The translations under genes and the position numbers were made by a program. From a phage, in the sequence record PZ445416.1: a stretch of 50,192 bases of DNA. One strand, given 5' to 3'. The notes below the pieces were generated by a model. That model was given only the letters and a program-made list of their open reading frames with translations, searched no databases and was not told the DNA's origin. Shown here in pieces: positions 27,162-47,843 of the stretch. The first letter of the stretch is position 1. Each line of letters opens with the position of its first letter.

Positions 27162-27204
27162 TAGCACTTTTTGCTAAAAACGTTTACTGTATGCCGTGTA
27201 TTAT
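27162..27204 (+). promoter_or_regulatory. Box-A cassette (putative phage promoter/operator) upstream of helicase
   Basis: TAGCACTTTTTGCTA, 22 bp, TATTAT; in the divergent gap between the HTH gene and helicase. Confidence 0.6.
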
Positions 27205-27242
27205 ATCGTAAACGATACAACGATTCAAAGGATTAAATAGCC

Positions 27243-29261
27243 GTGACAATTAACATCAAAAAGCAAATCGCATTACTTGGCGAGGACTATATAAAACGCA
27301 CTCAAGAACGATTCACTGTTGGTGAGGTCGTTCCGTATCCGTACCAGGTTGTTGCTTATGCTGAGATCGCAAAACGCCTATCAAATTATGAGCATCCATT
27401 CTTTGTTAAAGCGTCAGTATCGGCGGGTAAGACCATCATTTTTGCTATGGTTGCAAAGCAGTGTCAAAAAATGGGCTTGAAAATGCTTGTGCTGGCACGC
27501 CAGGGTGAGATTGTCGATCAGGATAGTGAAGAGATCGACAATTTCGGGGTGACTAACTCTATATTCTCAGCGTCACTTGGAATCAAGTCTTGCTACTTCC
27601 CGATCGTGGTAGGCTCTGAGGGTACTGTTGCAAATGGTTTAAATAATGAGCTAGCTGATTTTGTCCCTCACGTAATCGGGATAGATGAATGTCACCAGGT
27701 GGATTGGGAAGACCTTGCACAAGCCATAGATGGCAAGGAAACGATGGAACAGATGCGGGAAGAGAAGGGAAAAATCATTATGGAAGGGGGGATTTCTCTG
27801 ATTGGTAATGATGGGAAGCCTTTACTTGGAACTAAGCGAAGCCAGTACACGATCGTAATAATGGAGATGATGCGTCGCTGTAAAGAGGTTCACGGGCATG
27901 ACCTAAGAATATTTGGTATGACGGGATCTGAATTTCGCGGCGTTGTTCCTATTCTTGTTGAGAATCCAAAGGCGTTAGGATTCTGGCGCGAGCGCGTTAC
28001 TGATATTGACACCAACTACCTCATTGAGTTTGGCTCTGTCGTTCCGACGATATTCGGTTCAACGGATGGCGCTCACTACGATCTGGATAAGTTCAAAGCG
28101 TCAAGCGAGGACGGCGTTCAGGACTTTACAGAGAAAGATATGAAAGCGATGGAAGATGAAATTCTTCATGACAAATCTCTGACTCAGCGAATCATGCAAA
28201 TGGTCGCCAAAAAGGCTGAAGAGCGCAACGCGGTCCTGATTACATGTGCCGGGGTGCGTCACTGTAAAGAGGCAGCGGCGGCACTTCCTCCAGGAAGCAC
28301 CTATGCAATCATCACTGGAGATACAGACACCAAAACTCGCAAGAAGATTCTGGACGATGTGAGGTCCGGGAAGATTAAATACACCTTTCAGGTAATGGCT
28401 CTCACGACTGGCGTTAACGTTCCAAATTGGGATTTCAGTGTCATACTTCGCAAAATAGGATCACTCACGCTGTTGATTCAACTTTTGGGTAGGGGTATGC
28501 GATTGCTTAAATCCTGGCAGGTTGCTGAAGGAATGGTTAAGCAAGATCATCTTGTATGGGATTTCGCTGGCACTATGGATGAGTTGGGGCAACTTTATTT
28601 CGATCCTATACTTGAGCAGGCTCAATTCCAAAAGCGTTTTGAAAATGGCAAAGACCCGAAAACGTGTCCGAAGTGTGGTTGCGTAAATAGCTTCTACGCT
28701 CGCCGATGCGTTAACGTTATCGATGGTGAGCGTTGTGATCATTTCTGGACTTCTCAGATTTGCGAGGACCAGGTGGATGAGCGAACCGGGAAAATCCTTG
28801 TCAAAGGGTGTGGTGCCGAGAATGACGTTGTCGCCCGAGTTTGTCGTTGCTGTGATGTGTCACTTGTCGATCCTAACCTGAAATTGTCCGGCAAGGCGTA
28901 CACCAAGAATGACTGGTACGAGGTAAAGAATTTTGAGGTAACGCTAACCAAAAACCAAAAGGGTGTGATATACAAATACACACTGATTAACGATGATGGT
29001 GATGAGTTCAAGGCGTATGAAAAGTTCTTCCCCGAGTCTGACTCTAAGATTTGCGGTACACTATGGAAAACTAAAGGTGTATTGCCACACGTATCAGATC
29101 CTAAAATGCGCCGCTACTTTATCGGAATGAAGAACGCCATCAAGATCGTGCAATACGCACATCATATTGCTCACCCGGTGCGCGTAACTCATCGTCGCAA
29201 CCAGAAGAAAGAAGATATTATTAGTCGGAAGGATTTTGGAATGGAGGATATCCCGGAATGA
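27243..29261 (+). CDS. DExH-box DNA helicase
   Basis: GTG start; Walker A SAGKTII and motif II GIDECHQ; C-terminal Cys clusters (CPKCGC, CRCC) suggest a zinc finger. Confidence 0.8.
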   Translation: MTINIKKQIALLGEDYIKRTQERFTVGEVVPYPYQVVAYAEIAKRLSNYEHPFFVKASVSAGKTIIFAMVAKQCQKMGLKMLVLARQGEIVDQDSEEIDNFGVTNSIFSASLGIKSCYFPIVVGSEGTVANGLNNELADFVPHVIGIDECHQVDWEDLAQAIDGKETMEQMREEKGKIIMEGGISLIGNDGKPLLGTKRSQYTIVIMEMMRRCKEVHGHDLRIFGMTGSEFRGVVPILVENPKALGFWRERVTDIDTNYLIEFGSVVPTIFGSTDGAHYDLDKFKASSEDGVQDFTEKDMKAMEDEILHDKSLTQRIMQMVAKKAEERNAVLITCAGVRHCKEAAAALPPGSTYAIITGDTDTKTRKKILDDVRSGKIKYTFQVMALTTGVNVPNWDFSVILRKIGSLTLLIQLLGRGMRLLKSWQVAEGMVKQDHLVWDFAGTMDELGQLYFDPILEQAQFQKRFENGKDPKTCPKCGCVNSFYARRCVNVIDGERCDHFWTSQICEDQVDERTGKILVKGCGAENDVVARVCRCCDVSLVDPNLKLSGKAYTKNDWYEVKNFEVTLTKNQKGVIYKYTLINDDGDEFKAYEKFFPESDSKICGTLWKTKGVLPHVSDPKMRRYFIGMKNAIKIVQYAHHIAHPVRVTHRRNQKKEDIISRKDFGMEDIPE

Positions 29262-29674
29262 TTACAGACAAAGGCGATTATTTGGAGTTTTACGAACGAG
29301 ATCCCAGTGATACGCGAAAGGAGGATGCGCACCAGGTAGATTGCGTGTCCTGGCTGAAATACAATTTCCCACACCTTCTATTTTGGCACACTGTCAATGA
29401 AGGTGAAAAAACAATCACTTCAGCACTCAGGGATGAGCAGGCTGGATTACTTAAAGGTGTGTCAGATTTCGTTATCCTGATTGGTGTTAACTCACGATAC
29501 CCGTTTGCAGCAATAGAACTCAAACGGGTTAATAAGTCAGGCAAAGGAAAGGCGTCACCAGTCAGCGACAAGCAAAGGGAATTTCTCCGAAAGGTCAGGG
29601 AGCGTGGCGGCTTCCCCGCCGTCGCATACGGATTTGAGCAATTCAAGGTCGCAATTTACGAATTGATGAAATAG
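29258..29674 (+). CDS. VRR-NUC domain nuclease
   Basis: 138 aa with D...ELK-type catalytic pattern (VSDFVI, AAIELKR) typical of VRR-NUC; coupled to helicase stop. Confidence 0.65.
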   Translation: MITDKGDYLEFYERDPSDTRKEDAHQVDCVSWLKYNFPHLLFWHTVNEGEKTITSALRDEQAGLLKGVSDFVILIGVNSRYPFAAIELKRVNKSGKGKASPVSDKQREFLRKVRERGGFPAVAYGFEQFKVAIYELMK

Positions 29675-29714
29675 CACTTTTTGTTAAAACTGCTGGAATG
29701 GAATCTGGCATTAT
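29672..29714 (+). promoter_or_regulatory. Box-A cassette upstream of dam
   Basis: TAGCACTTTTTGTTA, 22 bp, CATTAT; TAG is the stop codon of the VRR-NUC gene. Confidence 0.6.
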
Positions 29715-29741
29715 TATCTCACCGAAACGAGAGGACTAAAG

Positions 29742-30455
29742 ATGAAAGACTTTAATGATATTGAAACCATCGACTTTGCAGAAACTGGTTGCTCATTCAC
29801 TCGCGAAGCAATAGCATCAGGCGGTTATTATCAGGCATTGAAAACGCCAACCTGCAAAGAGATTTCAGGGCGTCGATACAAGGGAACAAATACCCCTGAC
29901 GCTGTTCGTGATTTATGGTCAACTCCGCGCGAGGTTATTGCATACCTTGAGGGGCGATACGGAAAATATGATCTCGACGCTGCGGCAAGCGAAGAAAATA
30001 AAGTTTGCGATAAGTTCTACTCTCAGGAAACAAACTGCTTAAAACGTTGGTGGGGTAAGAATAAGCACGTTTGGTTAAACCCCCCTTATAGCAGACCCGA
30101 TATATTCGTCAAGAAGGCTATTGAGCAAATGGAGCACAATAACCAGATCGATATACTGTTACCCGCCGATAACTCTACGGCGTGGTTTACTGAAGCTCGA
30201 CAGAACGCAGCTGAAATAATCTGGATTGAAGCGGACTTGACTGAGGATATTGACGGCAATGAATACGCGCGATCCGGTCGCCTGGCTTTCATATCCGGTG
30301 AAACTGGAAAGGCCGTAGACGGTAATAACAAAGGTTCGGTAATTTTTATTATGCGCGAACTTAAAGAAGGTGAGGTGCAACAGACTCACTACATCCCAAT
30401 CACAAGCATTTGCCCTTCGGTGAAAAACAAACGAGCAAAGGTGAGGAAAGTATGA
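29742..30455 (+). CDS. dam: DNA N6-adenine methyltransferase (phage Dam-like)
   Basis: Catalytic NPPY motif (WLNPPYS) and upstream acidic SAM-binding region; 237 aa. Confidence 0.75.
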   Translation: MKDFNDIETIDFAETGCSFTREAIASGGYYQALKTPTCKEISGRRYKGTNTPDAVRDLWSTPREVIAYLEGRYGKYDLDAAASEENKVCDKFYSQETNCLKRWWGKNKHVWLNPPYSRPDIFVKKAIEQMEHNNQIDILLPADNSTAWFTEARQNAAEIIWIEADLTEDIDGNEYARSGRLAFISGETGKAVDGNNKGSVIFIMRELKEGEVQQTHYIPITSICPSVKNKRAKVRKV

Positions 30456-30703
30456 TGAGCGAAAAAATGGTTCCTGTTAAATTAACTGAGCAAGGTTTAT
30501 GGCTACTTTATCGAGCTACGTGCTGCGAGATTATGGAGCGAAATGGATTGACTAAGGATGTTATTGGTTGCGATCTGTGGGAGTTCACTAGTTCTCTTGA
30601 TATGTCTTTCGAAGAGATAAGGAATGAATACATTGAGAATTGGCCATTAATCATCCAAAAAGACGTAGAAGAACTTTCTTCTGAGATAATCACACAGCAC
30701 TAA
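30452..30703 (+). CDS. hypothetical protein
   Basis: Start at MMSEK after GAGGAAAG, overlapping the dam stop; 83 aa. Confidence 0.45.
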   Translation: MMSEKMVPVKLTEQGLWLLYRATCCEIMERNGLTKDVIGCDLWEFTSSLDMSFEEIRNEYIENWPLIIQKDVEELSSEIITQH

Positions 30704-30737
30704 TTGCTAAAACTACCCGGCGAAAGTCGGGTATAGT
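30695..30737 (+). promoter_or_regulatory. Box-A cassette
   Basis: CAGCACTAATTGCTA, 22 bp containing hairpin ACCCGGCGAAAGTCGGGT, TATAGT; upstream stop TAA is inside the box. Confidence 0.6.
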
Positions 30738-30769
30738 TATTTCATGGAAACGAAATGAGGAATCAGAAG

Positions 30770-30979
30770 ATGGCACGCATTAACGCAAACTTTTTCAATA
30801 TCGCCCAGCAGTCTGCAAAAATGGCCGTTCATATTACGAACAAGCAAGGCGGCAACTTCGATTGGGATATTGCTATGAACTTCCTTAAAATGTCTTATTA
30901 CCGTTGCTCGGTTGAAGAAGTCGAAGGCTTTATCTCTGACGTGGAGAAAATAACTAATGCTGATAAAAAAGAAAGGTAA
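30770..30979 (+). CDS. hypothetical protein
   Basis: Start at MARIN after GAGGAA, downstream of Box-A cassette 30695-30737. Confidence 0.45.
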   Translation: MARINANFFNIAQQSAKMAVHITNKQGGNFDWDIAMNFLKMSYYRCSVEEVEGFISDVEKITNADKKER

Positions 30980-31229
30980 GCGCGAAGTGTGGGAGCACGC
31001 AAAGGAATGCGGAATCTCAGACGATATAGCACTAATAGCAAAATATTTCGATATAAAGGATGTTAGCATTATCTCAAACGGAAAGATTTCATTTATGGAA
31101 GATATGCCGAGAAAAATGCATAGAGTGCCAGCTACCCCATCACTTGAATTTTATCGTGAAGAAGGAAAGAGAATTGAGCGAGAACGAAAAACAGCAAAGA
31201 GCAACAAGTCTTCCAGGCTTAAACATTAA
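30957..31229 (+). CDS. hypothetical protein (frame-ambiguous region)
   Basis: 90-aa ORF overlapping a second long ORF in another frame over a Lys/Glu/Arg-rich AAG/GAA-repetitive stretch. Confidence 0.35.
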   Translation: MLIKKKGKREVWEHAKECGISDDIALIAKYFDIKDVSIISNGKISFMEDMPRKMHRVPATPSLEFYREEGKRIERERKTAKSNKSSRLKH

Positions 31230-31461
31230 CTTAGATGACTACCAGACCATATGGATCGGAAAGAAGCAGGTTAAGAAAATCCCTTTCTCTGATTGGTTGC
31301 CTCCTGACTTCGTTAATGTGCTTTGCACTATTGGGATCGAGCAAGAGTTGCATATAGGTTATTACTCACCAGGTAGAAACAGTATGATGCTTGAGGTTAA
31401 TGGAAAACTGGTTGAGTTTAAATCTTCAGATCTAGGATTCTGGTTAAAGGCTGTGGCATGA
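31060..31461 (+). CDS. hypothetical protein (frame-ambiguous region)
   Basis: 133-aa ORF; its C-terminal 80 aa look protein-like but the N-terminal part overlaps 30957-31229; no convincing RBS. Confidence 0.35.
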   Translation: MLALSQTERFHLWKICREKCIECQLPHHLNFIVKKERELSENEKQQRATSLPGLNINLDDYQTIWIGKKQVKKIPFSDWLPPDFVNVLCTIGIEQELHIGYYSPGRNSMMLEVNGKLVEFKSSDLGFWLKAVA

Positions 31462-31539
31462 GACTTTATTTTGCTGTAGTATTAACACCGCTAATTTCAT
31501 TTTCAGTAATGTATTTCATTATCATGTAAGGATTAAAAT

Positions 31540-32691
31540 ATGTCACAATCTAAAATCACTACCGAGCAACTTATCGAAGAACGCATGAACGGACTTACAC
31601 TTCGCGAGATCGCGGAAAAGTACGGTATGCACATTCGCACGGTTGAAGCTCGCCACGCAAAATTGGCAAAAGAAGGCCACTTCCACGGTAACGAGCATGT
31701 CGCTAAGAACGTACCGGAAGGATTCATGGTAAAAGGTACATCAACGATGATTCGCGGAGATGGGACCGAGGTAGTGCGCTGGGTTAAAACCGATCAGGAC
31801 CGTGAGAAGATCGCGGCAATGATGGAAGCGGCGCGCATTGCATTCTGTGAAGACCTGCCGCGAGCAAAGCCAACCGAGCTACTAGCCTCGCAAGGGCTTA
31901 CGACAGCGATGGGTAAGTTGGCGCTCTATCCGGTGTTCGATCTTCATATTGGTGCGCTTGCTCATAAGCATGAATGCGGTGAGAACTATTCCACCGACGT
32001 AGCGGAAAAAGTGCTTAGCGACTTCTTTAATTACGCGATCGATATCGCGCCGAACGCAGAGAAGGCTGTTCTGTTAATCGGCGGCGACTTCCTTCACTCT
32101 GACGGCCTTGATGCAGTTACCCCGGCAAGTGGTCACGTTCTTGATCAGGACTCACGATACGCAAAATTAGTTCATGTTGCGATTCGTTCGGTACGCCGAG
32201 CCATCGACAAAATGCTTATGAAACACAAAGAAGTCGAGGTCCAGGTTATCGAAGGGAACCACGATCAGTCTGGGATGATTTGGCTGCGAGCTGCAATGTC
32301 GGCATATTATGAAGACGAGCCGCGAGTATTCGTTGACGTTAGTCCTATGATTCTGCATAAGACTCGTTGGGGAAATACCTTGCTGGGATACACTCACGGG
32401 CACACTATGAAAAAGGCAGACACGCGACTTGCAGCAATGGCGGCAGATTTCCGGTCAGACTTCGGTGAGAGCAAGTATGTGTATACTCATAGCGGTCACT
32501 GGCATCACCAGACAATCACTGAGCACTCGCTTGGTATTGATGAAGTACACGGTCAGTTAGGCGCGAAAGATGCATACGCCGCGCGAGGCGGGTGGCGCTC
32601 ATATCGCCAGGCGGCGGTAATAGTTTACGATAAACAGTTTGGTGAAATCGGTCGATTCATCTACCGTCCAGAAATGACAGGATCGCACTAA
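31540..32691 (+). CDS. metallophosphoesterase with N-terminal HTH domain
   Basis: N-terminal LTLREIAEKYGMHIRTVEARHAKL is HTH-like; calcineurin-type motifs GGDFLHSDG, EGNHDQ, GHTHG and GHWHH. Confidence 0.65.
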   Translation: MSQSKITTEQLIEERMNGLTLREIAEKYGMHIRTVEARHAKLAKEGHFHGNEHVAKNVPEGFMVKGTSTMIRGDGTEVVRWVKTDQDREKIAAMMEAARIAFCEDLPRAKPTELLASQGLTTAMGKLALYPVFDLHIGALAHKHECGENYSTDVAEKVLSDFFNYAIDIAPNAEKAVLLIGGDFLHSDGLDAVTPASGHVLDQDSRYAKLVHVAIRSVRRAIDKMLMKHKEVEVQVIEGNHDQSGMIWLRAAMSAYYEDEPRVFVDVSPMILHKTRWGNTLLGYTHGHTMKKADTRLAAMAADFRSDFGESKYVYTHSGHWHHQTITEHSLGIDEVHGQLGAKDAYAARGGWRSYRQAAVIVYDKQFGEIGRFIYRPEMTGSH

Positions 32692-32725
32692 TTGCTAAAG
32701 ATACCCGAATCCCTTCGGGTATAGT
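32683..32725 (+). promoter_or_regulatory. Box-A cassette
   Basis: TCGCACTAATTGCTA, 22 bp with perfect IR ATACCCGAA/TTCGGGTAT, TATAGT. Confidence 0.6.
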
Positions 32726-32754
32726 AATCACATCGAAAACAAAGAGGATATATC

Positions 32755-32931
32755 ATGAAACTAGTTAAGTGCATCCGAAATGACTCCAAAACACTTCCAT
32801 TCCGCGTAAATCAGATCTATAGTGTTGGTTATGATTTCGGTGGGGGATTATTTGAGATTCACGATGGTCGAGGTTCAGCAATCCAGGCTCCTCTGAACGG
32901 CAGCTATCTGGAATTTATTGCGATAGATTAA
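32755..32931 (+). CDS. small hypothetical protein (58 aa)
   Basis: ORF MKLVKCIRND..., absent from the supplied track; sits at the canonical distance downstream of Box-A cassette 32683-32725 with RBS AAAGAGGA. Confidence 0.4.
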   Translation: MKLVKCIRNDSKTLPFRVNQIYSVGYDFGGGLFEIHDGRGSAIQAPLNGSYLEFIAID

Positions 32932-33049
32932 CAATATCATTCATCACCTTACAGGCTGGCATGATTTACATGCTGGCCTTTTTGCGTTGTGTCAAATAAA
33001 TTTGAAGGTTAAAATCAACTCACTTGTTCAAAAAATATATGGTGAGATT

Positions 33050-33265
33050 ATGAAAGAATTTTTAACCGCAGCTACGTCTAGCACGGGCGGGGCTTCATTA
33101 GTGGGGGCGGCGACCGGGCAACTTTATATTGCTGGCGCTACATTCATTTGCTTTCTGCTTTTTGGTGCTTGGGGCGCATACTGGAAGTATCGTGATAGCA
33201 AGGCGATTCAGGAAGCGTTAAACGATGGCGATCTAAATAAGGCACTTAAGATCAGGGGGAGATAA
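33050..33265 (+). CDS. putative holin
   Basis: 71 aa with one strongly hydrophobic segment ([21 protein letters not shown]) and charged C-terminus; stop overlaps the endolysin start. Confidence 0.55.
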
Positions 33266-33753
33266 TGAGCTTAAAAAATAACGTTATAGGCGCATCGATC
33301 GGGGCTGCTTTGACGTTGACGCCTACCCTACTGGAACGAATCGAAGGGATAGAATACGAGGTGTATTACGATATCGCCGGAGTCCCTACCGTATGCAGCG
33401 GAATAACCGGGCCTGACGTCATACCTGGTAAGAAATACACTAAGCGAGAATGCGATGCATTGCTGATAAAACATATCGGCGTCGCTCAGCGATACGTTGA
33501 CAAAAAGGTGAATGTTGATATTCCGGTAACGATGCGCGCGTCACTGTACAGCTTCACTTTCAACGTTGGTACTGGCGCGTTCGGATCTTCTACAATGCTT
33601 AAGCTAATAAATCAGAGTAAGCACAAGGAAGCGTGCAATCAGTTATGGCGATGGGTATACTACTACAACCCAAAAACAAAAAAGCGAGAAGTGTCTAGAG
33701 GACTCAAGAACCGACGCGCTGAAGAATACGCGTATTGCGTTAAGGAATTATGA
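33265..33753 (+). CDS. endolysin (lysozyme-like muramidase)
   Basis: 162 aa; N-terminal [26 protein letters not shown] resembles the catalytic E...D...T region of GH24 phage lysozymes. Confidence 0.75.
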
Positions 33754-34419: not shown

Positions 34420-34462
34420 AATATACCCGATACGAGATCGGGTGTTTTAACAAAAAGTGCTA
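34420..34462 (-). promoter_or_regulatory. Box-A cassette (minus strand)
   Basis: Minus strand TAGCACTTTTTGTTA, 22 bp with IR CCCGAT/ATCGGG, TATATT, leader CATCGAAACGAAACGA. Confidence 0.6.
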
Positions 34463-36581: not shown

Positions 36582-36624
36582 ATGATACACCGCCAATGGT
36601 ACACGCGTTTTGCAAAAAGTGCTA
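36582..36624 (-). promoter_or_regulatory. Box-A cassette (minus strand) upstream of P-loop gene
   Basis: Minus strand TAGCACTTTTTGCAA, 22 bp, TATCAT, IR GGTGTA/TACACC. Confidence 0.55.
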
Positions 36625-37081: not shown

Positions 37082-37124
37082 ACTTTATCAAATGACCTTA
37101 CGGCAATATTAACAAATCGTGCTA
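37082..37124 (-). promoter_or_regulatory. Box-A cassette (minus strand)
   Basis: Minus strand TAGCACGATTTGTTA, 22 bp, TAAAGT enclosed by IR AAGGTCA/TGACCTT, leader CCAATCAGGAG. Confidence 0.55.
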
Positions 37125-37125
37125 T

Positions 37126-37595: not shown

Positions 37596-37639
37596 AATAT
37601 ACCTTACTCCCTGCTGATTGTCTTTAGCTATTCGTGCTA
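37596..37639 (-). promoter_or_regulatory. Box-A cassette (minus strand, variant box)
   Basis: Minus strand TAGCACGAATAGCTA, 23 bp, TATATT, IR GGGAGTAA/TTACTCCC. Confidence 0.5.
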
Positions 37640-38713: not shown

Positions 38714-38756
38714 ACTATACCAGCCATCCTTGATGCGCGTTTAGCAATTTGTGCTA
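38714..38756 (-). promoter_or_regulatory. Box-A cassette (minus strand)
   Basis: Minus strand TAGCACAAATTGCTA, 22 bp, TGgTATAGT, IR GGATG/CATCC. Confidence 0.6.
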
Positions 38757-39130: not shown

Positions 39131-39173
39131 ATTATGCCAAATCACACCGATCGAGTTTTAACAAAAAGTGCTA
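39131..39173 (-). promoter_or_regulatory. Box-A cassette (minus strand)
   Basis: Minus strand TAGCACTTTTTGTTA (stop of the methyltransferase-like gene inside box), 22 bp, CATAAT, leader CCTCATCGAAACGAGA. Confidence 0.6.
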
Positions 39174-39895: not shown

Positions 39896-39939
39896 ATCAT
39901 ACACTGCCAGCCTGACCAAGTCGTTAGCAAAAAATGCTA
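39896..39939 (-). promoter_or_regulatory. Box-A cassette (minus strand) upstream of C5-methyltransferase-like gene
   Basis: Minus strand perfect palindrome TAGCATTTTTTGCTA, 23 bp, TATGAT, leader CCAATCAGTAGGAG. Confidence 0.6.
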
Positions 39940-40144: not shown

Positions 40145-40230
40145 TCGATTACACTTTAACTTGTCACGATTGTAATATTTGTCTAGAATCGCACTTGTGA
40201 CAAAATTACGCACTGTGACGCATAACAATA

Positions 40231-40300
40231 GACATATAGATATATGTATATATATAATATATATAGTGTTTTTTTTATTTATATATATAGATAATCATAT
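40231..40300. repeat. TA-rich tract with element TATATAATATATATAG (second copy)
   Basis: TATATGTATATATATAATATATATAG...ATATATATAGATAAT inside the 630-bp non-coding hub between the divergent early clusters. Confidence 0.7.
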
Positions 40301-40548
40301 TGTAATAGTTGTGTATAGCTGTCTTACATTGTCTAGCGTACTGTTGGCATATTTCTATCTGCATGTTTATATATACAGTACTTTTTTGAGAGCTATATAT
40401 TTCTATGGTTACTCTAGACAGCTAGACAAATGTTACACGGCTTAAAATTGACTCGCAGGCATTGACAGCTCTACATCACGTTGTCACAATGGCAATTGTT
40501 GACACATTATGACGCCATTTACACACAAATAGACAAAGAGGATATATT

Positions 40549-41070: not shown

Positions 41071-41316
41071 ATGAGTATGAGCAAGATTAAGCATGACGCC
41101 CTGAAAGGTATCTTGATGCGACTAAACCCAGGCGAAGCATTCCAGCTTAACCCCGAGACGTTTGGATTCAATGGTGATTATCGTACAACCTTCGAATTTG
41201 TAAGGTATGTAAAGAAAGAGTTTGGATTCGAAGTTATTCACGCAGGTCTTATCAATGGCATCCAGACATTCATCTTTAAGCCAAATGAGATTCGTTGCTT
41301 CACGATGATGAAATAG
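41071..41316 (+). CDS. hypothetical protein
   Basis: 81 aa, RBS AAGGAGAG; its stop TAG is the first triplet of Box A at 41314. Confidence 0.5.
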   Translation: MSMSKIKHDALKGILMRLNPGEAFQLNPETFGFNGDYRTTFEFVRYVKKEFGFEVIHAGLINGIQTFIFKPNEIRCFTMMK

Positions 41317-41356
41317 CACTTTTTGTTAAAGCCCGGTCGAGCGGATCGGGTATTAT
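41314..41356 (+). promoter_or_regulatory. Box-A cassette
   Basis: TAGCACTTTTTGTTA, 22 bp, TATTAT, leader CATCGACACGATACAGAGGA. Confidence 0.6.
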
Positions 41357-41583: not shown

Positions 41584-41585
41584 TC

Positions 41586-42056
41586 ATGGCGACAATTACC
41601 GTATTCCTGGCTAAAGATGAGATTGATGGCGAAATGTCATTCTTCGCGTTTGAGCACAAGACCGGATCGCACTGGCACATGTACAGTCACTACACGGTTA
41701 TTGATATCAACTCATACGCTTGCGATTCGCTAAATGAAAAACTTGGTCGATTCATTGAGCATGTTAAATTAAGAGATGGTGGCGAGTGGAATGATAAGCA
41801 TGAAGGTCGACGCATGTGTGACATGATTGATCCTGTTTATCTGGAGTCGTTCGAGCTTGATGCTGATGTTGCCATTAAGGTGAGAAAGTCGGGTGAATTG
41901 TTGCCAGGGATGCGTGTGCTGACTGGTTACTCGGGCCGTAAGGTGTGGCGCACTGTATCCAAGATTCGCCAGCGTTCGGCAACATGCTATAGCGTATTCT
42001 TTGATGATGGTTGGAATATGATTTCCGGCAGTGAGGTAAAGTATCTCACCAAATAG
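41586..42056 (+). CDS. hypothetical protein
   Basis: 156 aa; stop TAG is the first triplet of Box A at 42054. Confidence 0.5.
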   Translation: MATITVFLAKDEIDGEMSFFAFEHKTGSHWHMYSHYTVIDINSYACDSLNEKLGRFIEHVKLRDGGEWNDKHEGRRMCDMIDPVYLESFELDADVAIKVRKSGELLPGMRVLTGYSGRKVWRTVSKIRQRSATCYSVFFDDGWNMISGSEVKYLTK

Positions 42057-42096
42057 CACGAATTGTTAAAACCGGATCGGGGTATCTTGCTATAGT
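42054..42096 (+). promoter_or_regulatory. Box-A cassette
   Basis: TAGCACGAATTGTTA, 22 bp with IR GGGGTA/TACCCC, TGcTATAGT. Confidence 0.6.
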
Positions 42097-42134
42097 TACC
42101 CCATCAAAACGAGATACCAATCAGAGGATTCACC

Positions 42135-42365
42135 ATGTCAATCGTCAAGAACCAACAAGCCATCGACTCAACCAGCCACAACCGCTTTGCTATTTTCATC
42201 ACATCTATAGGTCGCCGATTTGCAGTTAAGGCCGCGCCTGGTGGATACAAAACATACATGGAGGATAACGGGAAATGGGTGTGGTGCGAAAACCTAGCCA
42301 ACTTCCTGGTATGGAACGCAGACCTGCAAGGATTCGATGATATCAGCACTTTAATTGAGGAGTAA
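42135..42365 (+). CDS. hypothetical protein
   Basis: 76 aa, leader CCAATCAGAGGA. Confidence 0.5.
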   Translation: MSIVKNQQAIDSTSHNRFAIFITSIGRRFAVKAAPGGYKTYMEDNGKWVWCENLANFLVWNADLQGFDDISTLIEE

Positions 42366-42371
42366 ATAATA

Positions 42372-42599
42372 ATGCCACGTTACAGTAACCTAACCAAACT
42401 AGTCCGCGTCAACGGGCATATGATCCCGGCTAAATCTACTCACTGCGCGAAAGGCGCAAAGCACGGATTATATTTCAAGTGGCGCGGTCAATGGAACTTC
42501 ACGGCGGTGAGCAATTTTTACATGCGAGTTCCAGGTGATGACCCGCAATCGGTAGTAGAAAACTCAATAGGTGACAACAAGATCGAGGTGCTAAAATGA
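42372..42599 (+). CDS. hypothetical protein
   Basis: 75 aa, basic and Cys/His-containing. Confidence 0.45.
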   Translation: MPRYSNLTKLVRVNGHMIPAKSTHCAKGAKHGLYFKWRGQWNFTAVSNFYMRVPGDDPQSVVENSIGDNKIEVLK

Positions 42600-42706
42600 A
42601 CTTCAATACAATAGCTCTATGGTCTGCCGTCTGGTTCTTCTGCATGGGTCACGTTATGGTCGGCATCGTGGTAATGCTTCTCCTGTGCGCGGGGGCGTTC
42701 GAATGA
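42596..42706 (+). CDS. putative small membrane peptide (36 aa)
   Basis: ATGA overlap with upstream stop; almost entirely hydrophobic (ALWSAVWFFCMGHVMVGIVVMLLL); absent from the supplied track. Confidence 0.35.
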   Translation: MNFNTIALWSAVWFFCMGHVMVGIVVMLLLCAGAFE

Positions 42707-42876
42707 TGCGAATATTGATTTGCATGATGGCGGCTGTCGCCCTGGCTATCCTGGTAGTGTCCGGCTGCGGCGAGGTCAAAGAGCGATGCCATGAAACCGG
42801 GAGCCAGGCTACTACTTTCGTGATGGTTGGCAACGTTTTGCTACCAATCACATCAAATGAAATCACTTGCGAATAG
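42703..42876 (+). CDS. putative small lipoprotein (57 aa)
   Basis: Start MMRIL overlaps the previous stop; signal peptide with lipobox-like VVSGC. Confidence 0.4.
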   Translation: MMRILICMMAAVALAILVVSGCGEVKERCHETGSQATTFVMVGNVLLPITSNEITCE

Positions 42877-42884
42877 AGGTTAAT

Positions 42885-43076
42885 ATGGCTGACTTTATGC
42901 ACCAAATGATTGCAGTATTCAAAGGTAGCGAAGATGAGGAAGTAAAAGAGTGCTTTACTGTCGACAAGCCTTATAACGCTTCTCTGACCAGCTTCGGTAA
43001 CATCTCATTGCTTGATGATAATGGCGACCCCTGGGTATTCGATGAAGATACGGATTGCTTCGAAATTAAAGAATAG
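42885..43076 (+). CDS. hypothetical acidic protein
   Basis: Start at MADFMHQ after AGAGG; stop TAG is the first triplet of Box A at 43074. Confidence 0.5.
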   Translation: MADFMHQMIAVFKGSEDEEVKECFTVDKPYNASLTSFGNISLLDDNGDPWVFDEDTDCFEIKE

Positions 43077-43116
43077 CACTTTTTGTTAAAACGCGATCAT
43101 ATGGTTGCGATATAGT
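43074..43116 (+). promoter_or_regulatory. Box-A cassette
   Basis: TAGCACTTTTTGTTA, 22 bp, TATAGT, leader CACATCAACAACGAATGAGGA. Confidence 0.6.
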
Positions 43117-43147
43117 AACCACATCAACAACGAATGAGGACGAGAAC

Positions 43148-43636
43148 ATGAAAATTAAATTACTGTGCACTGGAGGTTACAAAGGCTTTACTCGCAACCT
43201 GGAGTCAGACCCGATTATCGTTGACGCTGTGAAGTGTGATGATAGCACGGGCGGCTACCGTGTTAAGGTTGACGATCTGGTAAAAGCTGGCGTGTACGAT
43301 CTGGATTATGGACTTTCGGTTAGCCCGGTAGTCGGTCCGGCAGACTTCAATGAGAAAAACGGAACGATGTTCTTCTTCGAGTGGGAAGTCCAGGCAAATC
43401 CTAAGCCGCGCAAGGTTCGACTTCTCAATAGTGGCGGATACCCGATGCGCTCGGGGTATGAGAACCGCACGTTCCCGGTTATCGTTGATTTTGAAGAAAT
43501 CACTAGCAACCTGGCATACGTTAACGATGAGCAGTTGCGAGCGGTTGGATTTGTCGGCGGTATGAATAAAGAGGCGCTCTGCTTCTTCCATCGAGATCCA
43601 GAACCGTTCGATATTGAGTGCGAGTTAGTTTACTAA
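43148..43636 (+). CDS. hypothetical protein
   Basis: 162 aa; stop TAA overlaps Box A at 43635. Confidence 0.5.
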   Translation: MKIKLLCTGGYKGFTRNLESDPIIVDAVKCDDSTGGYRVKVDDLVKAGVYDLDYGLSVSPVVGPADFNEKNGTMFFFEWEVQANPKPRKVRLLNSGGYPMRSGYENRTFPVIVDFEEITSNLAYVNDEQLRAVGFVGGMNKEALCFFHRDPEPFDIECELVY

Positions 43637-43677
43637 GCACGAATTGTTAAAAGGGGATTTGTCCTGACTGGTATAAT
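43635..43677 (+). promoter_or_regulatory. Box-A cassette
   Basis: AAGCACGAATTGTTA, 22 bp with IR GGGGATT/AATCCCC, TGgTATAAT. Confidence 0.6.
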
Positions 43678-43707
43678 CCCCACATCAACCACTAAGAGGA
43701 AAGCATC

Positions 43708-44214
43708 ATGTTAAAATTAGAATACGTAAAATTCCCGATTAAATTTATCAGCCTGGGTTGCGGTGAAATTACACTCACCAGTGAAGATAAAGGCAAGTGG
43801 GCCACTGATGAGGTGTCTCAGCTTAAGTTGGATTGGTTTATCAATCGGCACAATGAAGTAAATCCTGAAAACTCAGCCAAGAAGGATTACCATTACATTA
43901 TTAGTGGTAGTCAGGATGCGTACGGAAAGTATGATGGTTGGAAAACTGATCGATCCATCTTCCACCCCGCAAAGCCAGAAATTAAACCGATGTTACAATG
44001 CACTCAGATCGAGAACATGCCATTGAGCGCTACGCTAAAGGGCGTCCAACTTGATAGCGAATCCTGGACCGAGATTACCGCCACACCTAAAACTATTGAG
44101 GTGCATGATGATGTAGTGATTCTCCTATTGCATTACGGCAGCTTTAAGCACAAAACGGTATCAGGTGAAATAAGCATTAAGCGCGGAACACTTGTACGCT
44201 ATGAGGTGAAATAA
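43708..44214 (+). CDS. hypothetical protein
   Basis: 168 aa; RBS AAGAGGAAAG. Confidence 0.5.
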   Translation: MLKLEYVKFPIKFISLGCGEITLTSEDKGKWATDEVSQLKLDWFINRHNEVNPENSAKKDYHYIISGSQDAYGKYDGWKTDRSIFHPAKPEIKPMLQCTQIENMPLSATLKGVQLDSESWTEITATPKTIEVHDDVVILLLHYGSFKHKTVSGEISIKRGTLVRYEVK

Positions 44215-44363
44215 TGGCGGCGTGGATTTTGATTATCTTGATGAGTACCGGGCCGGATCACGTATACATGGAAAGTCAGCAATCATGCAACAAGGCTCGG
44301 GAAGTAATTGCAGAGAGCAAGCCGTTCGGATACGAAGTAAAAACGATGTGCGTTAAACGATAG
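44214..44363 (+). CDS. small hypothetical protein (49 aa)
   Basis: ATG overlaps upstream TAA; hydrophobic N-terminus (AAWILIILMS); stop TAG is the first triplet of Box A at 44361; absent from the track. Confidence 0.35.
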   Translation: MAAWILIILMSTGPDHVYMESQQSCNKAREVIAESKPFGYEVKTMCVKR

Positions 44364-44403
44364 CACGAATTGCTAAACCTTCCGCAAGGCCATTTGATAT
44401 AGT
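44361..44403 (+). promoter_or_regulatory. Box-A cassette
   Basis: TAGCACGAATTGCTA, 22 bp with IR AAGGCCA/TGGCCTT, TGaTATAGT. Confidence 0.6.
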
Positions 44404-44443
44404 GGCCTTATTGAAGCAAGGCAACCAATCAGAGGAATCAGCT

Positions 44444-44650
44444 ATGGCTACACGACTAACTCAGTGGCAGATTTACGACAAGGCCTCACACCTTCGTGAA
44501 TCGCTTCGCGGACTGGCACCGAACGACCGCATGGAGATTATCGGGCACGCATTGCACGAACTCACGTCTCAGGACGTAATCTATCACTCATGCGGCAATA
44601 AATTCTGGAACGTGACATTCGAGGTAAAGAAAGATGAGCAAAACTCATAA
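44444..44650 (+). CDS. hypothetical protein
   Basis: Start moved to MATRLTQ after CCAATCAGAGGA. Confidence 0.5.
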   Translation: MATRLTQWQIYDKASHLRESLRGLAPNDRMEIIGHALHELTSQDVIYHSCGNKFWNVTFEVKKDEQNS

Positions 44651-44921
44651 GTTAAAAATCTCCCCGGTACATTTCATTGGTGTAATGAACGGAACCAAAA
44701 CGGCAGAGTTCCGCGTCAATGACCGCAACTTCCAGGTTGGTGATATCCTTGAGCTACGCGAGTTCGATCGTGACGAGCTTACCGGGTGGGAAGTTCACGC
44801 CAGGGTGTCCGATGTTACAGATGTGACGCCATACATCAATCGCGGTTATGACGAGCAAGAATGCGACTTCACGCAGTACGTGATGTTATCAATCAAGCCC
44901 TACAGGAAGATTAGACCATGA
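44634..44921 (+). CDS. ASCH / DUF3850-like protein (PUA-like fold)
   Basis: HKLKISPVHFIGVMNGTKTAEFRVNDRNFQVGDILELRE resembles the DUF3850/ASCH signature as I remember it. Confidence 0.55.
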   Translation: MSKTHKLKISPVHFIGVMNGTKTAEFRVNDRNFQVGDILELREFDRDELTGWEVHARVSDVTDVTPYINRGYDEQECDFTQYVMLSIKPYRKIRP

Positions 44922-45556
44922 AATTTGAGTGTGTATCGAGTAGCGGATCTGGTTTTAAGTGGGGAAAAACTTACAAAGGTGTTCGCGTAAATGATGACAG
45001 CTTCATCATTACTGATGAGAACGGTTGCAACGTGAACGTTGTACGGCGTCACGAATATCAGGAAATTTTCCTGCCTTATGGCGGTAGCTCAAAATATATC
45101 TTCCATCGAATCGTGGATGGTGTTAAATTTAACGACGTAATCGAAGCAATCAACCAACTGCATAATAAAGAGGTAAAATTTATGAAATTCGAATGTATCA
45201 GCGATAACACCAAAAAATTTACTGTTGGAAAAATCTATGACGTTCCATCTGAGCACGCTAAGCACACGACTGTAATTACCGATGACACGGGCCATAACCG
45301 CATCGCAACGATCACTCACAATGGTGAGGGTCTTCGTTGGAACAGTGGCGGCACTAAGTTCGCAACTTTCGGTAAGAAGAGTAAGCGCACTTTCTGCGTC
45401 AACGACAAGATCAATACCAGCAAGATTAGCAACGTCAAGCCTATTAATGTTGACCGCAAGCCAGCGATGAAGTTTGAAGAGAAAGCGGATTTATCCATCC
45501 TGGCTGTGGCGCTTGTTCTCCTGGTGGCTTCGATTTCGCTGATGTTCATCATGTAA
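44918..45556 (+). CDS. membrane-anchored protein with internal tandem repeat
   Basis: Residues 1-90 and 91-180 both begin MKFEC(V/I)S... and share G(K)xYxxV; C-terminal TM helix ILAVALVLLVASISLMFIM. Confidence 0.55.
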   Translation: MKFECVSSSGSGFKWGKTYKGVRVNDDSFIITDENGCNVNVVRRHEYQEIFLPYGGSSKYIFHRIVDGVKFNDVIEAINQLHNKEVKFMKFECISDNTKKFTVGKIYDVPSEHAKHTTVITDDTGHNRIATITHNGEGLRWNSGGTKFATFGKKSKRTFCVNDKINTSKISNVKPINVDRKPAMKFEEKADLSILAVALVLLVASISLMFIM

Positions 45557-45609
45557 TTTCAATTGGGAATCGGCTCTGAACGGTTCCCCTTTCTTTTGGA
45601 GAAAACACT

Positions 45610-45720
45610 ATGCCAGACTTTTCTAACTGGAATAACGAGCCACCATCATTTCAGGATTTGCTATTCTGCCTCCTGGTCCTGACATTATCTCTTAAGGGTG
45701 TTTTATGGCTACTATCATGA
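45610..45720 (+). CDS. possible small hydrophobic peptide (36 aa)
   Basis: ORF MPDFSNWNNEPPSFQDLLFCLLVLTLSLKGVLWLLS with upstream GGAG; overlaps the start of 45705-45923 in another frame, so only one may be real. Confidence 0.25.
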   Translation: MPDFSNWNNEPPSFQDLLFCLLVLTLSLKGVLWLLS

Positions 45721-45923
45721 CAGCAGAAGATGCAGCGCGTGACGCAGTGGAAGGAATGCGCCCAAATACCTCCAGAATCGCACACTACTACAAATCTGAG
45801 GTGTCGGCAGTGCAATTGGTCCACGAAATTTTAATGCTACCACAAGTCGATTCAGCGCGCGTGGTGACGTGCTTAAAAAATTATTTTTGCATCACTATTA
45901 AAACGAATAGCACGAATTGCTAA
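45705..45923 (+). CDS. hypothetical protein
   Basis: 72 aa; stop TAA lies inside Box A at 45908-45922. Confidence 0.35.
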   Translation: MATIMTAEDAARDAVEGMRPNTSRIAHYYKSEVSAVQLVHEILMLPQVDSARVVTCLKNYFCITIKTNSTNC

Positions 45924-45950
45924 AACCTATCAAGGTGAATGCGCTATGAT
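45908..45950 (+). promoter_or_regulatory. Box-A cassette
   Basis: TAGCACGAATTGCTA, 22 bp, TATGAT. Confidence 0.6.
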
Positions 45951-45980
45951 TCCCCTACACCAACAAACGAGGAAACGATA

Positions 45981-46427
45981 ATGAAACACTTAATCTGCAT
46001 TGAAGCGCCTAACGATGAATACACTCTGCACGGCATTGGAATGTTCAAAGGTCACTACATGACAGCAAGTATTCATGATTCGCGTTGCGTCAATGGCGAT
46101 CTGATGATTACGTCAAAAGAAGTAAATCCGTACATTATGCAGAATCTTGGCAATAACGAATATATGGCCTATGGATGCAACGCAGTGTATAAGCACATTA
46201 AGATCCGCAAGCGCGTCGTGCGTGCATTCAAGAAGATTGCAATGAAGTACTGGAAGATGAGCAAGAAGGACGCCGGGCGCTGGGCGCGTAATGTTGCTGA
46301 CGCATACTTCTACCGTAACGGTGAGTCCTGCTACTTCCTGATCGATGAAATTATGGAAAACTACGGCGGCGACTTCAGCCAGTGCAGCTTTGACGATTGG
46401 GTTAATTATGAGATCAGTTGCTGGTAA
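45981..46427 (+). CDS. hypothetical protein
   Basis: Start moved to MKHLI after ACGAGGAAACG; Cys/Tyr/Trp-rich; stop followed immediately by Box A at 46428. Confidence 0.5.
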   Translation: MKHLICIEAPNDEYTLHGIGMFKGHYMTASIHDSRCVNGDLMITSKEVNPYIMQNLGNNEYMAYGCNAVYKHIKIRKRVVRAFKKIAMKYWKMSKKDAGRWARNVADAYFYRNGESCYFLIDEIMENYGGDFSQCSFDDWVNYEISCW

Positions 46428-46470
46428 TAGCACGAATTGCTAAAACTTGCTCAAGGGTATTTGATAGAAT
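46428..46470 (+). promoter_or_regulatory. Box-A cassette upstream of HAD phosphatase gene
   Basis: TAGCACGAATTGCTA, 22 bp, TGaTAGAAT, leader CCAATCAGAGGA. Confidence 0.6.
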
Positions 46471-46510
46471 GCCCTTCGTTGAGTTAAGCAACCAATCAGA
46501 GGAATAAATC

Positions 46511-47122
46511 ATGGATAAAATTACCATTTGGGGACAGACAATCAACCTGTTTCTCGGCACGCGCCGCGTAGCAATCTTTGACTTTGATGGAACACTTAGC
46601 GATGGATCTGGTCGACTTCACCTGCTACCTACAAAGGATTTGCAATTAACTGAAAGCTGGTCCGAGTTTAACCGCGCGGCAATATTTGATAACCCAATCA
46701 AGAGTACGATTGAAGTGATGAACTCTATGTTTGCCGCTGGGTATCATGTGATCATTTTAACCGGGCGAAGTGATGAGGTGCGTTACGCATCTGAGTTATG
46801 GCTTAAGCATCACGGCGCTCGATATGATTACTTAGTCATGCGACCGCATACCGACAACCGCAAAGACACGGTAATGAAAGAAGAGGCAGTGCGCGCGATC
46901 GGCATTGAGAACATTCTGGCGGCCTGGGATGACTCACCGCAAATTATTCCATTATTCCGCTCGCTTGGAATAACAACTTACGCTGTAGTTGACTATGGCG
47001 ATAACGTTCACAATCATTTAAAATCTCACGGGGTAGATGAGGTTTGCAATCATGAACCATCTGAGCCGCTACCGCCATTTGGTGAGAAAATTTGCATTAA
47101 GTGCAAGGAGTTATTGAAGTGA
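46511..47122 (+). CDS. HAD-family phosphatase (polynucleotide 3'-phosphatase-like)
   Basis: N-terminal DxDGT motif (IFDFDGTL) typical of HAD phosphatases such as the T4 Pnkp phosphatase domain; C-terminal CxxC pair. Confidence 0.65.
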   Translation: MDKITIWGQTINLFLGTRRVAIFDFDGTLSDGSGRLHLLPTKDLQLTESWSEFNRAAIFDNPIKSTIEVMNSMFAAGYHVIILTGRSDEVRYASELWLKHHGARYDYLVMRPHTDNRKDTVMKEEAVRAIGIENILAAWDDSPQIIPLFRSLGITTYAVVDYGDNVHNHLKSHGVDEVCNHEPSEPLPPFGEKICIKCKELLK

Positions 47123-47230
47123 ACCTATACGAATTTATTGCATCGCACCCGGTATTGACGGTTATCATTCTGCTAATCATCAATCACACTATCATCAATG
47201 TGGCAAAATTATTTTTAGGGAGATGCTAAC

Positions 47231-47803
47231 ATGAAAACAGCTATCATTTTAAACGGCGCACCTGGTGCGGGAAAGGACACTATCGGATGCATCCTGGCTG
47301 ACACTTACGATCACGTAGCGCTACGCAGCTTCAAAGCGCCAATGTTTGAGATTGCCCGAGCAATCCTGGGTGAGACTAATTTCGAGTATTTCATGTTCTT
47401 GTACGAGGACCGTCGCTATAAAGAAGAGCCAACATCAATCCTGAACGGTAAAAGCCCACGCCAGTTCATGATCTGGATTAGCGAGGAGGTCATCAAGCCG
47501 CAGTTCGGAAATCGCTTCTTCGGTATGCGAGCGGAAAGCAAGGTGAAAGAGTCGCACTCCCTTTCGGTATTTACTGACGGTGGATTCAAAGATGAGATCC
47601 TACAAATGATTGAAGGTGATATCCAGGTTAAGCTATGTCGAATCCATCGCAACGGTTGCAGCTTTGATAACGACAGCCGAGACTATATCTATCTTGACGA
47701 TATGATCGGGGTCAACGGTTATCAGGAATGTGACTTCTTTTCTGTCGAAGGCCATCCAGAAATTACCGCTCAGCACATAGCCGCCACGTTCATCAACAAA
47801 TAG
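47231..47803 (+). CDS. P-loop kinase (polynucleotide 5'-kinase / nucleotide kinase-like)
   Basis: Walker A LNGAPGAGKDT at residues 7-17; 190 aa; adjacent to the HAD phosphatase gene. Confidence 0.6.
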   Translation: MKTAIILNGAPGAGKDTIGCILADTYDHVALRSFKAPMFEIARAILGETNFEYFMFLYEDRRYKEEPTSILNGKSPRQFMIWISEEVIKPQFGNRFFGMRAESKVKESHSLSVFTDGGFKDEILQMIEGDIQVKLCRIHRNGCSFDNDSRDYIYLDDMIGVNGYQECDFFSVEGHPEITAQHIAATFINK

Positions 47804-47843
47804 CACGAATTGCTAAAACTTCGGTGGGGTGATTTGATATAGT
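47801..47843 (+). promoter_or_regulatory. Box-A cassette
   Basis: TAGCACGAATTGCTA (TAG is the kinase stop), 22 bp, TGaTATAGT, leader CATCGACAACGAAGAGAG. Confidence 0.6.

Follow-up and report, generated by a model that had tools for sequence, protein, structure and literature searches.

Repeated intergenic cassettes of a T1-like phage carry a marbox-like element and resemble class II sigma-70 promoters

The phage genome and its repeated cassettes

The stretch of phage DNA analysed here (sequence record PZ445416.1, 50,192 nucleotides, referred to as the window) is, judging from its sequence matches, a T1-like phage genome of the Drexlerviridae, Tunavirus, and at 50.2 kb it is essentially the whole genome. 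The best megablast matches of region 27000-35000 are T1-like phages of E. coli and Shigella with 92-94% identity (440 phage records found). Late structural genes occupy approximately 1-21 kb, and recombination, tail-fibre and replication genes are located at 21-30 kb. Small early genes form two divergent blocks, one on either side of a 600-bp non-coding region, 39940-40548. The subject of this work is an intergenic cassette repeated between positions 27162 and 47843. It is composed of a box with the core TAGCA-N5-TGCTA (Box A), a spacer, a -10-like hexamer and a leader that precedes the start codon of the downstream gene.

An earlier note, made from the letters of this DNA alone, had counted nineteen cassettes within 27162-47843. 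Exactly 19 are recovered, 12 on the plus strand and 7 on the minus strand, and every one of them (19/19) is co-oriented with the downstream gene. The spacer between Box A and the hexamer is 22 bp in 17 of the 19 and 23 bp in the other two (37625 and 39925), as had been stated. The hexamers are -10-like indeed (TATAGT, TATTAT, TATAAT, TAGAAT, CATAAT and similar), and the TG that was said to stand often upstream is found 5' of the hexamer in 9 of 19. In 12 of 19 cassettes the conserved leader, of the form CATCGAAACGA, opens with a C at the predicted -1 and an A at +1. A GAGGA-type Shine-Dalgarno sequence follows 11-34 nt further downstream, ahead of the start codon. Box A tends to abut the upstream gene, also as described before; a stop codon lies in the box or no more than 4 nt away in at least 12 of 19 cassettes. 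The open reading frame (ORF) 39158-39919(-) reads through the entire box. The reported absence of a -35 element agrees with the genome statistics, since canonical sigma-70 promoters that include a -35 occur in 27000-46900 no more often than expected (33 against 36.5).

The core TAGCA-N5-TGCTA has 8 exact copies in the window, where 0.02 are expected, and 44 copies with up to two mismatches, where 21 are expected. The oriented 19-mer ATAGCACnnnTTGnTAAAA has 24 copies with up to two mismatches (0.1 expected) and 27 with up to three (2 expected).

The repeat is an already published element, which the earlier note missed. In its passage on the repeat, the 2024 re-annotation of phage TLS reports 18 intergenic copies of a 21-nt direct repeat, aaATAGCACnnnTTGnTAAAA, which are co-oriented with transcription, lie about 76 nt 5' of start codons and fall into A, T and G subgroups (PMC11447400). 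The same passage finds the repeat also in T1, Rtp and Rogue1, suggests that the copies are stoperators, enhancer sites or UP elements, and lists their function as an open question of the field (PMC11447400). The TLS repeat, as described there, and the cassette box are the same element; the consensus, the central-triplet subgroups (AAA, TTT, GAA), the co-orientation with genes and the distance of about 76 nt to the start codon are shared. Three features of the present analysis are unmentioned in that passage, namely a -10 element at fixed distance, the hairpins and the identity of the box with the marbox, the binding site of the host activators MarA, SoxS and Rob (PMC11447400). We found no publication linking the marbox with phages, and the TLS paper was the sole description of the motif, in a search that did not extend to the T1 (2004) and Rtp (2006) genome papers.

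Box A, the marbox and the promoter geometry

The earlier note recognized in Box A the site of no known E. coli regulator. By its sequence, however, Box A is a near-perfect marbox of the AraC-family activators MarA, SoxS and Rob. The marbox consensus derived from chromatin immunoprecipitation sequencing (ChIP-seq) is GCAnnWWnTGnnAAA (PMC12052159). The window contains 20 exact matches to this consensus, where 0.75 would be expected, and each of them is a copy of Box A; in shuffled sequence, the control proposed in the earlier note, the maximum in 100 shuffles is 4. The classical marbox is degenerate and asymmetric, AYnGCACnnWnnRYYAAAY (as quoted in PMC3709825), and the extended phage box, ATAGCACnnWTTGYTAAAAC, fits it at all positions but one. 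Where the phage copies differ from one another, the marbox has N, W or Y. A host matrix was built from 70 MarA/SoxS/Rob/RamA ChIP-seq sites of Salmonella (PMC10268841, Table 1), and the phage box at 38740(-) has exactly the consensus sequence of this matrix, GCACAAATTGCTAAA. On this matrix canonical phage boxes score 15.2-17.6 bits, while among the host sites themselves the median is 10.7, the 90th percentile 16.0 and the highest score 17.4 bits. The window holds 24 sites of at least 14 bits, where 0.96 are expected.

The binding of a dimer to a palindrome, as proposed earlier, does not agree with the pattern of conservation. The conserved elements are asymmetric, with GCAC on the left and TTGC on the right (inner positions C and T), a 5' flank ATA and a 3' flank AAAAC, and the GCA...TGC symmetry is already present within the host consensus GCAnnWWnTGnnAAA. 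Together these features fit a monomer with two helix-turn-helix motifs.

In orientation and in distance to the hexamer, the box agrees base for base with the class II promoter of micF. Class II promoters are defined in PMC12052159, PMC10268841 and PMC9638938, and the micF box is centred at -41.5. Class II marbox promoters have been reported without a -35 element (PMC10268841), and activation complexes of micF with Rob and SoxS have been solved (PMC9178005, PMC9638938). In the E. coli K-12 micF promoter (ACAGCACTGAATGTCAAAAC, 15 nt, TAGAAT) the G of GCAC is 35 nt from the hexamer. The same distance is found in 17 of the 19 phage cassettes, the other two having 36 nt, and in 143 of 163 unique cassettes from relatives. 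The marbox is in forward orientation in 19 of 19, with GCAC distal and AAA proximal to the hexamer and the downstream gene. The putative protein-binding box is thus centred near -41 in place of a -35 element, which is the class II geometry that had been proposed. Reading by host sigma-70 RNA polymerase, the other part of that proposal, also finds support in the conserved extended -10 G at -14, hexamer and C-1/A+1 (143 cassettes, four phage genera). In this set the hexamer A at position 2 and T at position 6 were selection criteria, while the G at -14 (1.59 bits over the 143 unique cassettes) and the C-1/A+1 at the start of the CATCGAAACGA leader were not used in selection. The predicted transcription start is the A of this leader, 7 nt past the hexamer. 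Box type, orientation, micF distance, G at -14 and C-1/A+1 together suggest that each cassette constitutes an entire sigma-70 promoter and belongs to the class II marbox type. Of the earlier interpretation, then, the class II promoter and the host sigma-70 RNA polymerase are supported by the sequence, and the unknown palindrome, the dimer and the phage-encoded binder candidates are not.

The likeness to class II marbox promoters of E. coli and Salmonella, micF among them, includes the asymmetric 20-bp box with its GCAC and YAAA elements in forward orientation. With micF in particular the cassettes share the 35-nt distance, the replacement of the -35 by the box and a sigma-70 -10, and one phage copy has the hexamer TAGAAT. 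Unlike host class II promoters, the phage sites lie in a virulent phage genome, are used about 20 times as a module and are uniformly at the top of the host range in box quality. They also differ in the strongly conserved G at -14, the fused leader, a hairpin in most copies and the frequent overlap of the box with an upstream stop codon; binding of MarA, SoxS or Rob is putative here.

Middle promoters of phage T4 (MotA box plus -10, sigma appropriation) show a similar arrangement, in which an activator box replaces the -35 element before a good, often extended -10. In T4, however, both MotA and the co-activator AsiA are phage-encoded and the box is near -30, whereas here a host-type box is near -41 and no phage activator is detectable. 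Two other types of element were considered for Box A. A sigma-54 promoter (TGGCAC-N5-TTGCW, with GG and GC 10 bp apart at -24 and -12) was rejected; Box A reads TAGCAC-N3-TTGC, with AG for GG and a spacing 2 bp short, and a conserved -10 is located 22 bp downstream. An UP element is unlike Box A, which has no A/T tract and does not match the UP subsites.

In favour of a phage-encoded regulator, the core TAGCA-N5-TGCTA is a genuine 5+5 inverted repeat whose half-sites are separated by one helical turn. Such a regulator, either the Cro-like protein 26696-27148(-) or an immediate-early product such as 40549-41064, would bind Box A and activate or time the promoters, and the marbox likeness would be coincidence or mimicry. 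We consider this explanation unlikely. A marbox, but not the site of a symmetric dimer, requires the asymmetrically conserved C4 of GCAC, the 3' AAAAC and a strict orientation. At every informative position the box has the letter of the host consensus, and it stands at the micF distance. The proteins themselves are discussed below.

Hairpins in the cassettes

In most cassettes a hairpin of variable sequence lies between the box and the leader, a feature absent from the earlier note. Folding was evaluated on 19 cassettes (18 of the 19 above plus cassette 22396, with 37110(-) left out). The mean z-score is -2.66, and z is below -1.64 in 15 of 19. In 16 related loci, including T1, the hairpins are retained through compensatory changes, for example in the stems given for cassettes 37596 and 43074 in Table 1. 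At the 41314 site two unrelated spacer/hairpin versions alternate among related loci (L010, L011, L014-L016, L018, L019), with identical boxes and similar leaders. Two unrelated interiors at one orthologous position imply recombinational swapping of cassette interiors between promoters.

The location of the hairpin is less constant than that of the box. Among 67 clusters the hairpin is 5' of the hexamer in 27 and carries the hexamer in its loop in 11. In some cassettes the hairpin ends at the hexamer, and four hairpins of this kind pass the terminator scan, with the -10 hexamer as the T-rich tail; most cassette hairpins have no run of three or more U. Terminator-like sites overall are not enriched by this simple scan. 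Cassettes that stand first in their block (the helicase promoter in four genera and 39925(-)) have a weak or absent hairpin, with z of -1.3, +0.7, 0.0, -0.7 and +1.0, while internal cassettes have z of about -2.5. The missing hairpin in first-of-block cassettes suggests that it acts on upstream read-through transcripts and not in promoter recognition. We infer that the hairpin is probably a leaky terminator or a 3'-end stabiliser on read-through RNA. Sense and antisense folding energies are -10.7 and -9.8 kcal/mol, a difference that is not significant (p = 0.07), and the hairpin may act as sense RNA or as DNA.

These hairpins also bear on the possibility that the whole cassette works in RNA, as a nut/put-like or processing site in which Box A and the hairpin are read in read-through transcripts and the hexamer is a loop motif. 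The significant folding, the compensatory changes and the G.T (G.U) pairs would agree with this, as would the hexamer in the loop in the minority of clusters mentioned above. The distance between hexamer and Box A, however, is fixed while the hairpin moves, even to the 5' side of the hexamer; first-of-block cassettes keep box and hexamer without a hairpin; and G at -14 and C-1/A+1 are promoter features. An RNA-level cassette is thus highly improbable. A hairpin that is movable, and missing from first-of-block cassettes, looks like an added module rather than part of the cassette core.

Candidate readers, proposed mechanism and other features

No homologue of MarA or Rob is found among all 859 six-frame ORFs with phmmer and a hidden Markov model of MarA and the Rob N-terminal domain (best E about 1). 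A Pfam search of 10 proteins detects no regulator besides a weak P22-Cro-like helix-turn-helix in 26696-27148, and a PHROGs search of 20 plus-strand early proteins detects no transcription-regulator family. The Cro-like protein 26696-27148(-), which the earlier note had named as a candidate binder, is 47-53% identical across genera and adjoins the helicase gene in all four of them; its 5' leader in the window contains a Box A copy. This placement would suit a phage regulator. Its putative recognition helix, however, varies by genus (NQTVQG, IQVVQQ, YGTVRH, HAVVSE), while the box is invariant. The early small proteins had been suggested as well. The 171-residue protein 40549-41064(+) is the product of the first gene past the canonical promoters, and its homologues are detected only in T1-like coliphage and Shigella phage records. 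Its AlphaFold2 model (predicted local distance difference test score, pLDDT, 85) has no significant match in the PDB by Foldseek (best E 0.09, weak PadR-like, template modelling score, TM, 0.27). The predicted structure thus shows no AraC-like fold, and no AraC-like protein is found by sequence, both of which argue against a phage-encoded reader.

No change of box or spacing is seen among Tunavirus, Webervirus, Rogunavirinae and a Yersinia ruckeri phage, so that the conservation for which the earlier note proposed to search related phages is indeed present. Klebsiella Webervirus GH-K3 has 12 sites against 1.7 expected, the Yersinia ruckeri phage 17 against 1.3, and Rogunavirinae MM01 11 against 2.3, and the helicases of these three phages are 50-62% identical to that of the window. 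This constancy of the box across genera would be expected of a conserved host reader more than of a phage repressor-like protein, which evolves fast.

Strong canonical sigma-70 promoters form a cluster at one place only, 40161-40510, where they precede genes 40549 and 41071 and the first rightward cassette. These are likely immediate-early promoters that need no activator.

Taken together, the cassettes are probably sigma-70 class II promoters read by host MarA, SoxS or Rob, although several observations weigh against this reading. The motif is absent in Klebsiella Sortsnevirus IME279 and in a Vibrio myovirus, both of which share the helicase. IME279 is outside the family and lacks the motif though its host has the regulators, so the motif tracks the phage lineage and not the host. 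A phage regulator would explain this too, and lineage tracking does not discriminate between host reader and phage reader. Separate immediate-early promoters suggest that a phage product may be needed to unlock or read the boxes; canonical promoters driving 40549 and 41071 before the first rightward cassette are also what a phage regulator in an immediate-early/delayed-early cascade would show. Growth of T1-like phages is fast in ordinary broth, a condition in which MarA and SoxS levels are low and most of the Rob is sequestered. Such growth, together with a full TG extended -10 in 9 of 19 cassettes and the common G at -14, indicates that the promoters may work largely unaided. Finally, several boxes (49611, 25621, 16076, 40130) have no correctly placed -10, suggesting that activation is not their sole role.

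In the mechanism proposed here, the canonical promoters at 40161-40510 would fire first, unaided. Genes for replication, recombination, methylase, nucleotide kinase and lysis, along with many small genes, would next be transcribed from about 20 marbox promoters. At each of these promoters, the marbox at about -50 to -31 would take the place of the -35 element, and a monomeric host activator with two helix-turn-helix motifs would bind it, one helix reading GCAC and the other YTAAA. Once in place, the activator would displace sigma region 4 and bring in RNA polymerase by way of the C-terminal domain of the alpha subunit and sigma region 4, in the manner solved for micF. The likeliest reader in unstressed cells is Rob, being constitutive and abundant; under stress MarA, SoxS or, in Klebsiella, RamA would read the boxes. 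With its hairpin, a cassette would serve as terminator and promoter in one module.

No other virulent phage is known to us to rely on AraC-family stress activators of its host as the principal means of recognizing promoters. If correct, this would be the first such case known, in contrast to T4, where the activator is phage-encoded, and phage expression would be tied to the regulon for efflux, porins and intrinsic antibiotic resistance, including TolC, the receptor of TLS. It would bear on phage-antibiotic synergy, on phage behaviour in the bile-rich gut and on the design of compact inducible promoter cassettes. A wider proposal, which is tentative and in our view rather doubtful, is that nearly the whole non-structural programme of the Drexlerviridae is wired to the host mar/sox/rob regulon, so that inducers gate the phage, an immediate-early product may unlock sequestered Rob and the phage marboxes drain the regulators. 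With such wiring, bile salts, salicylate, redox drugs and antibiotics that induce Rob, MarA, SoxS or RamA would have a direct accelerating or gating effect on the development of the phage, and hundreds to thousands of top-affinity marboxes on replicating DNA would drain these regulators from host resistance genes.

No hexamer is present at the 35-nt distance from the boxes 49611-49625(+), 25621-25635(+), 16076-16090(+), 31027-31041(+), 40130-40144(-) and 26697-26711(-). Box 25621(+) is inverted and lies about 20 nt 5' of the start codon of the minus-strand tail-fibre gene. The gene at 49644 is taken, from its position, to be that of the terminase small subunit. Boxes of this kind may be roadblocks or repressor-type sites, and the boxes in general may also act as roadblocks, decoys or antisense promoters. 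That the boxes are not mainly activator sites, but decoys titrating MarA, SoxS, Rob or another factor, or orientation-dependent roadblocks (stoperators) limiting read-through, is nevertheless very unlikely. About 25 top-scoring sites per genome, multiplied by replication, could titrate a factor, and conserved boxes without a proper -10 stand directly 5' of ribosome-binding sites (49611, 25621, 16076). Neither role, however, needs the fixed 35 nt to a conserved extended -10, the C-1/A+1 and the universal co-orientation. Stoperators are known from temperate phages with a repressor, and none is evident here. Those of mycobacteriophage L5 are likewise many asymmetric sites in short intergenic gaps, in one orientation to transcription. 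Unlike the cassettes, they bind a phage repressor and block elongation in a temperate phage, and have no fixed relation to a -10. The stoperator idea itself was raised for TLS in the passage on its repeat (PMC11447400).

The coordinates of all features are summarized in Table 1.

Table 1. Cassettes with putative marboxes and other features of the window; spacer is the distance from box to hexamer, and scores are on the host matrix
Feature	Position	Strand	Box	Spacer	Hexamer	Context and hairpin
Cassette	27162..27204	+	marbox TAGCACTTTTTGCTA, 17.0 bits	22 bp	TATTAT	promoter of helicase gene 27243-29261; first of block; weak hairpin
Cassette	29672..29714	+	marbox	22 bp	TG-n-CATTAT	5' of Dam-like methyltransferase 29742-30455; TAG stop of upstream ORF inside box
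Cassette	30695..30737	+	marbox	22 bp	TATAGT	hairpin ACCCGGCGAAAGTCGGGT adjoins hexamer; terminator-like score
Cassette	32683..32725	+	marbox	22 bp	TATAGT	5' of lysis-region genes; TAA stop of ORF 31540-32691 inside box
Cassette	34420..34462	-	marbox	22 bp	TATATT	terminator-like hairpin 5' of hexamer
Cassette	36582..36624	-	marbox GCACTTTTTGCAAAA, letter-for-letter a Salmonella ChIP-seq site	22 bp	TATCAT	hexamer in hairpin loop
Cassette	37082..37124	-	marbox (TAAT variant)	22 bp	TG-n-TAAAGT	hexamer in hairpin loop
Cassette	37596..37639	-	marbox	23 bp	TATATT	hairpin GGGAG/CTCCC, in relatives GTGAG/CTCAC (compensatory)
Cassette	38714..38756	-	marbox GCACAAATTGCTAAA, consensus of the 70 host ChIP-seq sites, 17.6 bits	22 bp	TG-n-TATAGT	
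Cassette	39131..39173	-	marbox	22 bp	TG-n-CATAAT	methyltransferase ORF 39158-39919(-) reads through box
Cassette	39896..39939	-	weaker marbox GCATTTTTTGCTAAC, 11.1 bits	23 bp	TATGAT	first of minus-strand block; no hairpin
Cassette	41314..41356	+	marbox	22 bp	TATTAT	two unrelated spacers among relatives, each forming a hairpin
Cassette	42054..42096	+	marbox	22 bp	TG-n-TATAGT	hexamer in hairpin loop
Cassette	43074..43116	+	marbox	22 bp	TATAGT	hairpin TGGTT/AACCA, in relatives GGGGTT/AACCCC
Cassette	43635..43677	+	marbox (TAAGCAC variant, TAA being the upstream stop)	22 bp	TG-n-TATAAT	
Cassette	44361..44403	+	marbox	22 bp	TG-n-TATAGT	hexamer within hairpin AAGGCCA/TGGCCTT
Cassette	45908..45950	+	marbox	22 bp	TATGAT	
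Cassette	46428..46470	+	marbox	22 bp	TG-n-TAGAAT (hexamer of micF)	5' of polynucleotide-kinase-like gene
Cassette	47801..47843	+	marbox	22 bp	TG-n-TATAGT	13-bp hairpin with three G.T pairs around hexamer
Extra cassette, outside the range of the earlier note	22396..22437	+	degenerate marbox GCACAAATAGCTAAA, 16.1 bits	21 bp	TG-n-TATAAT	hexamer in hairpin loop (z -5.1); gene 22436-23116 downstream, the SH6 gene in the corresponding position being annotated as Erf-like single-stranded DNA annealing protein
Antisense cassette	9840..9904	-	marbox, box at 9890	22 bp	TG-n-TAAGAT	complete-looking; points into late gene
Antisense cassette	6075-6141	-	box at 6127			in late region, opposite to structural genes
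Orphan marbox	49611..49625	+	marbox			about 17 nt 5' of Shine-Dalgarno sequence of gene 49644; conserved in 16 related loci
Sigma-70 promoter cluster	40161..40510	+				TTGTCA-17-TAGAAT, TAGACA-18-TATAAT, TTGACA-17-CACAAT; in divergent non-coding region
9-mer ACCAATCAG	3233, 15040, 19157, 27798, 29477, 31289, 37057, 39876	-				
9-mer ACCAATCAG	9908, 13296, 22449, 40558, 42116, 44424, 46491	+				

The cassette at 9890(-) may be an antisense promoter. Seen on the plus strand, its box is inverted and stands directly 5' of the ACCAATCAGGAG leader of the late gene. A good canonical promoter, TTGAAT-17-TATAAT at 27200-27228(-), for the Cro-like gene 26696-27148(-) faces and overlaps the helicase cassette. 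A transcript of the Cro-like gene must cross the marbox 27162-27176, and occupancy of this box could therefore repress the gene.

GATC, the Dam site, is found in the spacer of 5 of the 19 cassettes against about 1.4 expected: 39159(-), 42054(+), 43074(+), 34448(-) and 41314(+). In the first three of these it is at the same position, 20-23 nt past the G of GCAC. A gene for a Dam-like methyltransferase is present in the phage itself, at 29742-30455. The spacer GATC may reflect a common ancestry of these cassettes or methylation-sensitive promoters.

The non-coding region 39940-40548 contains repeated TTGTCAC/TGTGAC words and a TATATA-rich tract at 40225-40300. On the T1 reference genome it maps close to the left end. 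The region probably serves for immediate-early control, and the origin or the pac-proximal end may be located there as well.

The 9-mer ACCAATCAG has 15 copies in the window, where 0.43 are expected. Seven copies are in leaders just 5' of the Shine-Dalgarno sequence, one is in the first codons of gene 40549 and seven are within coding regions. Six of the seven coding-region copies are antisense, and their reading frames differ, suggesting that the encoded amino acids are not the source of the signal. Webervirus GH-K3 is rich in the 9-mer too, with 8 copies in 33.7 kb.

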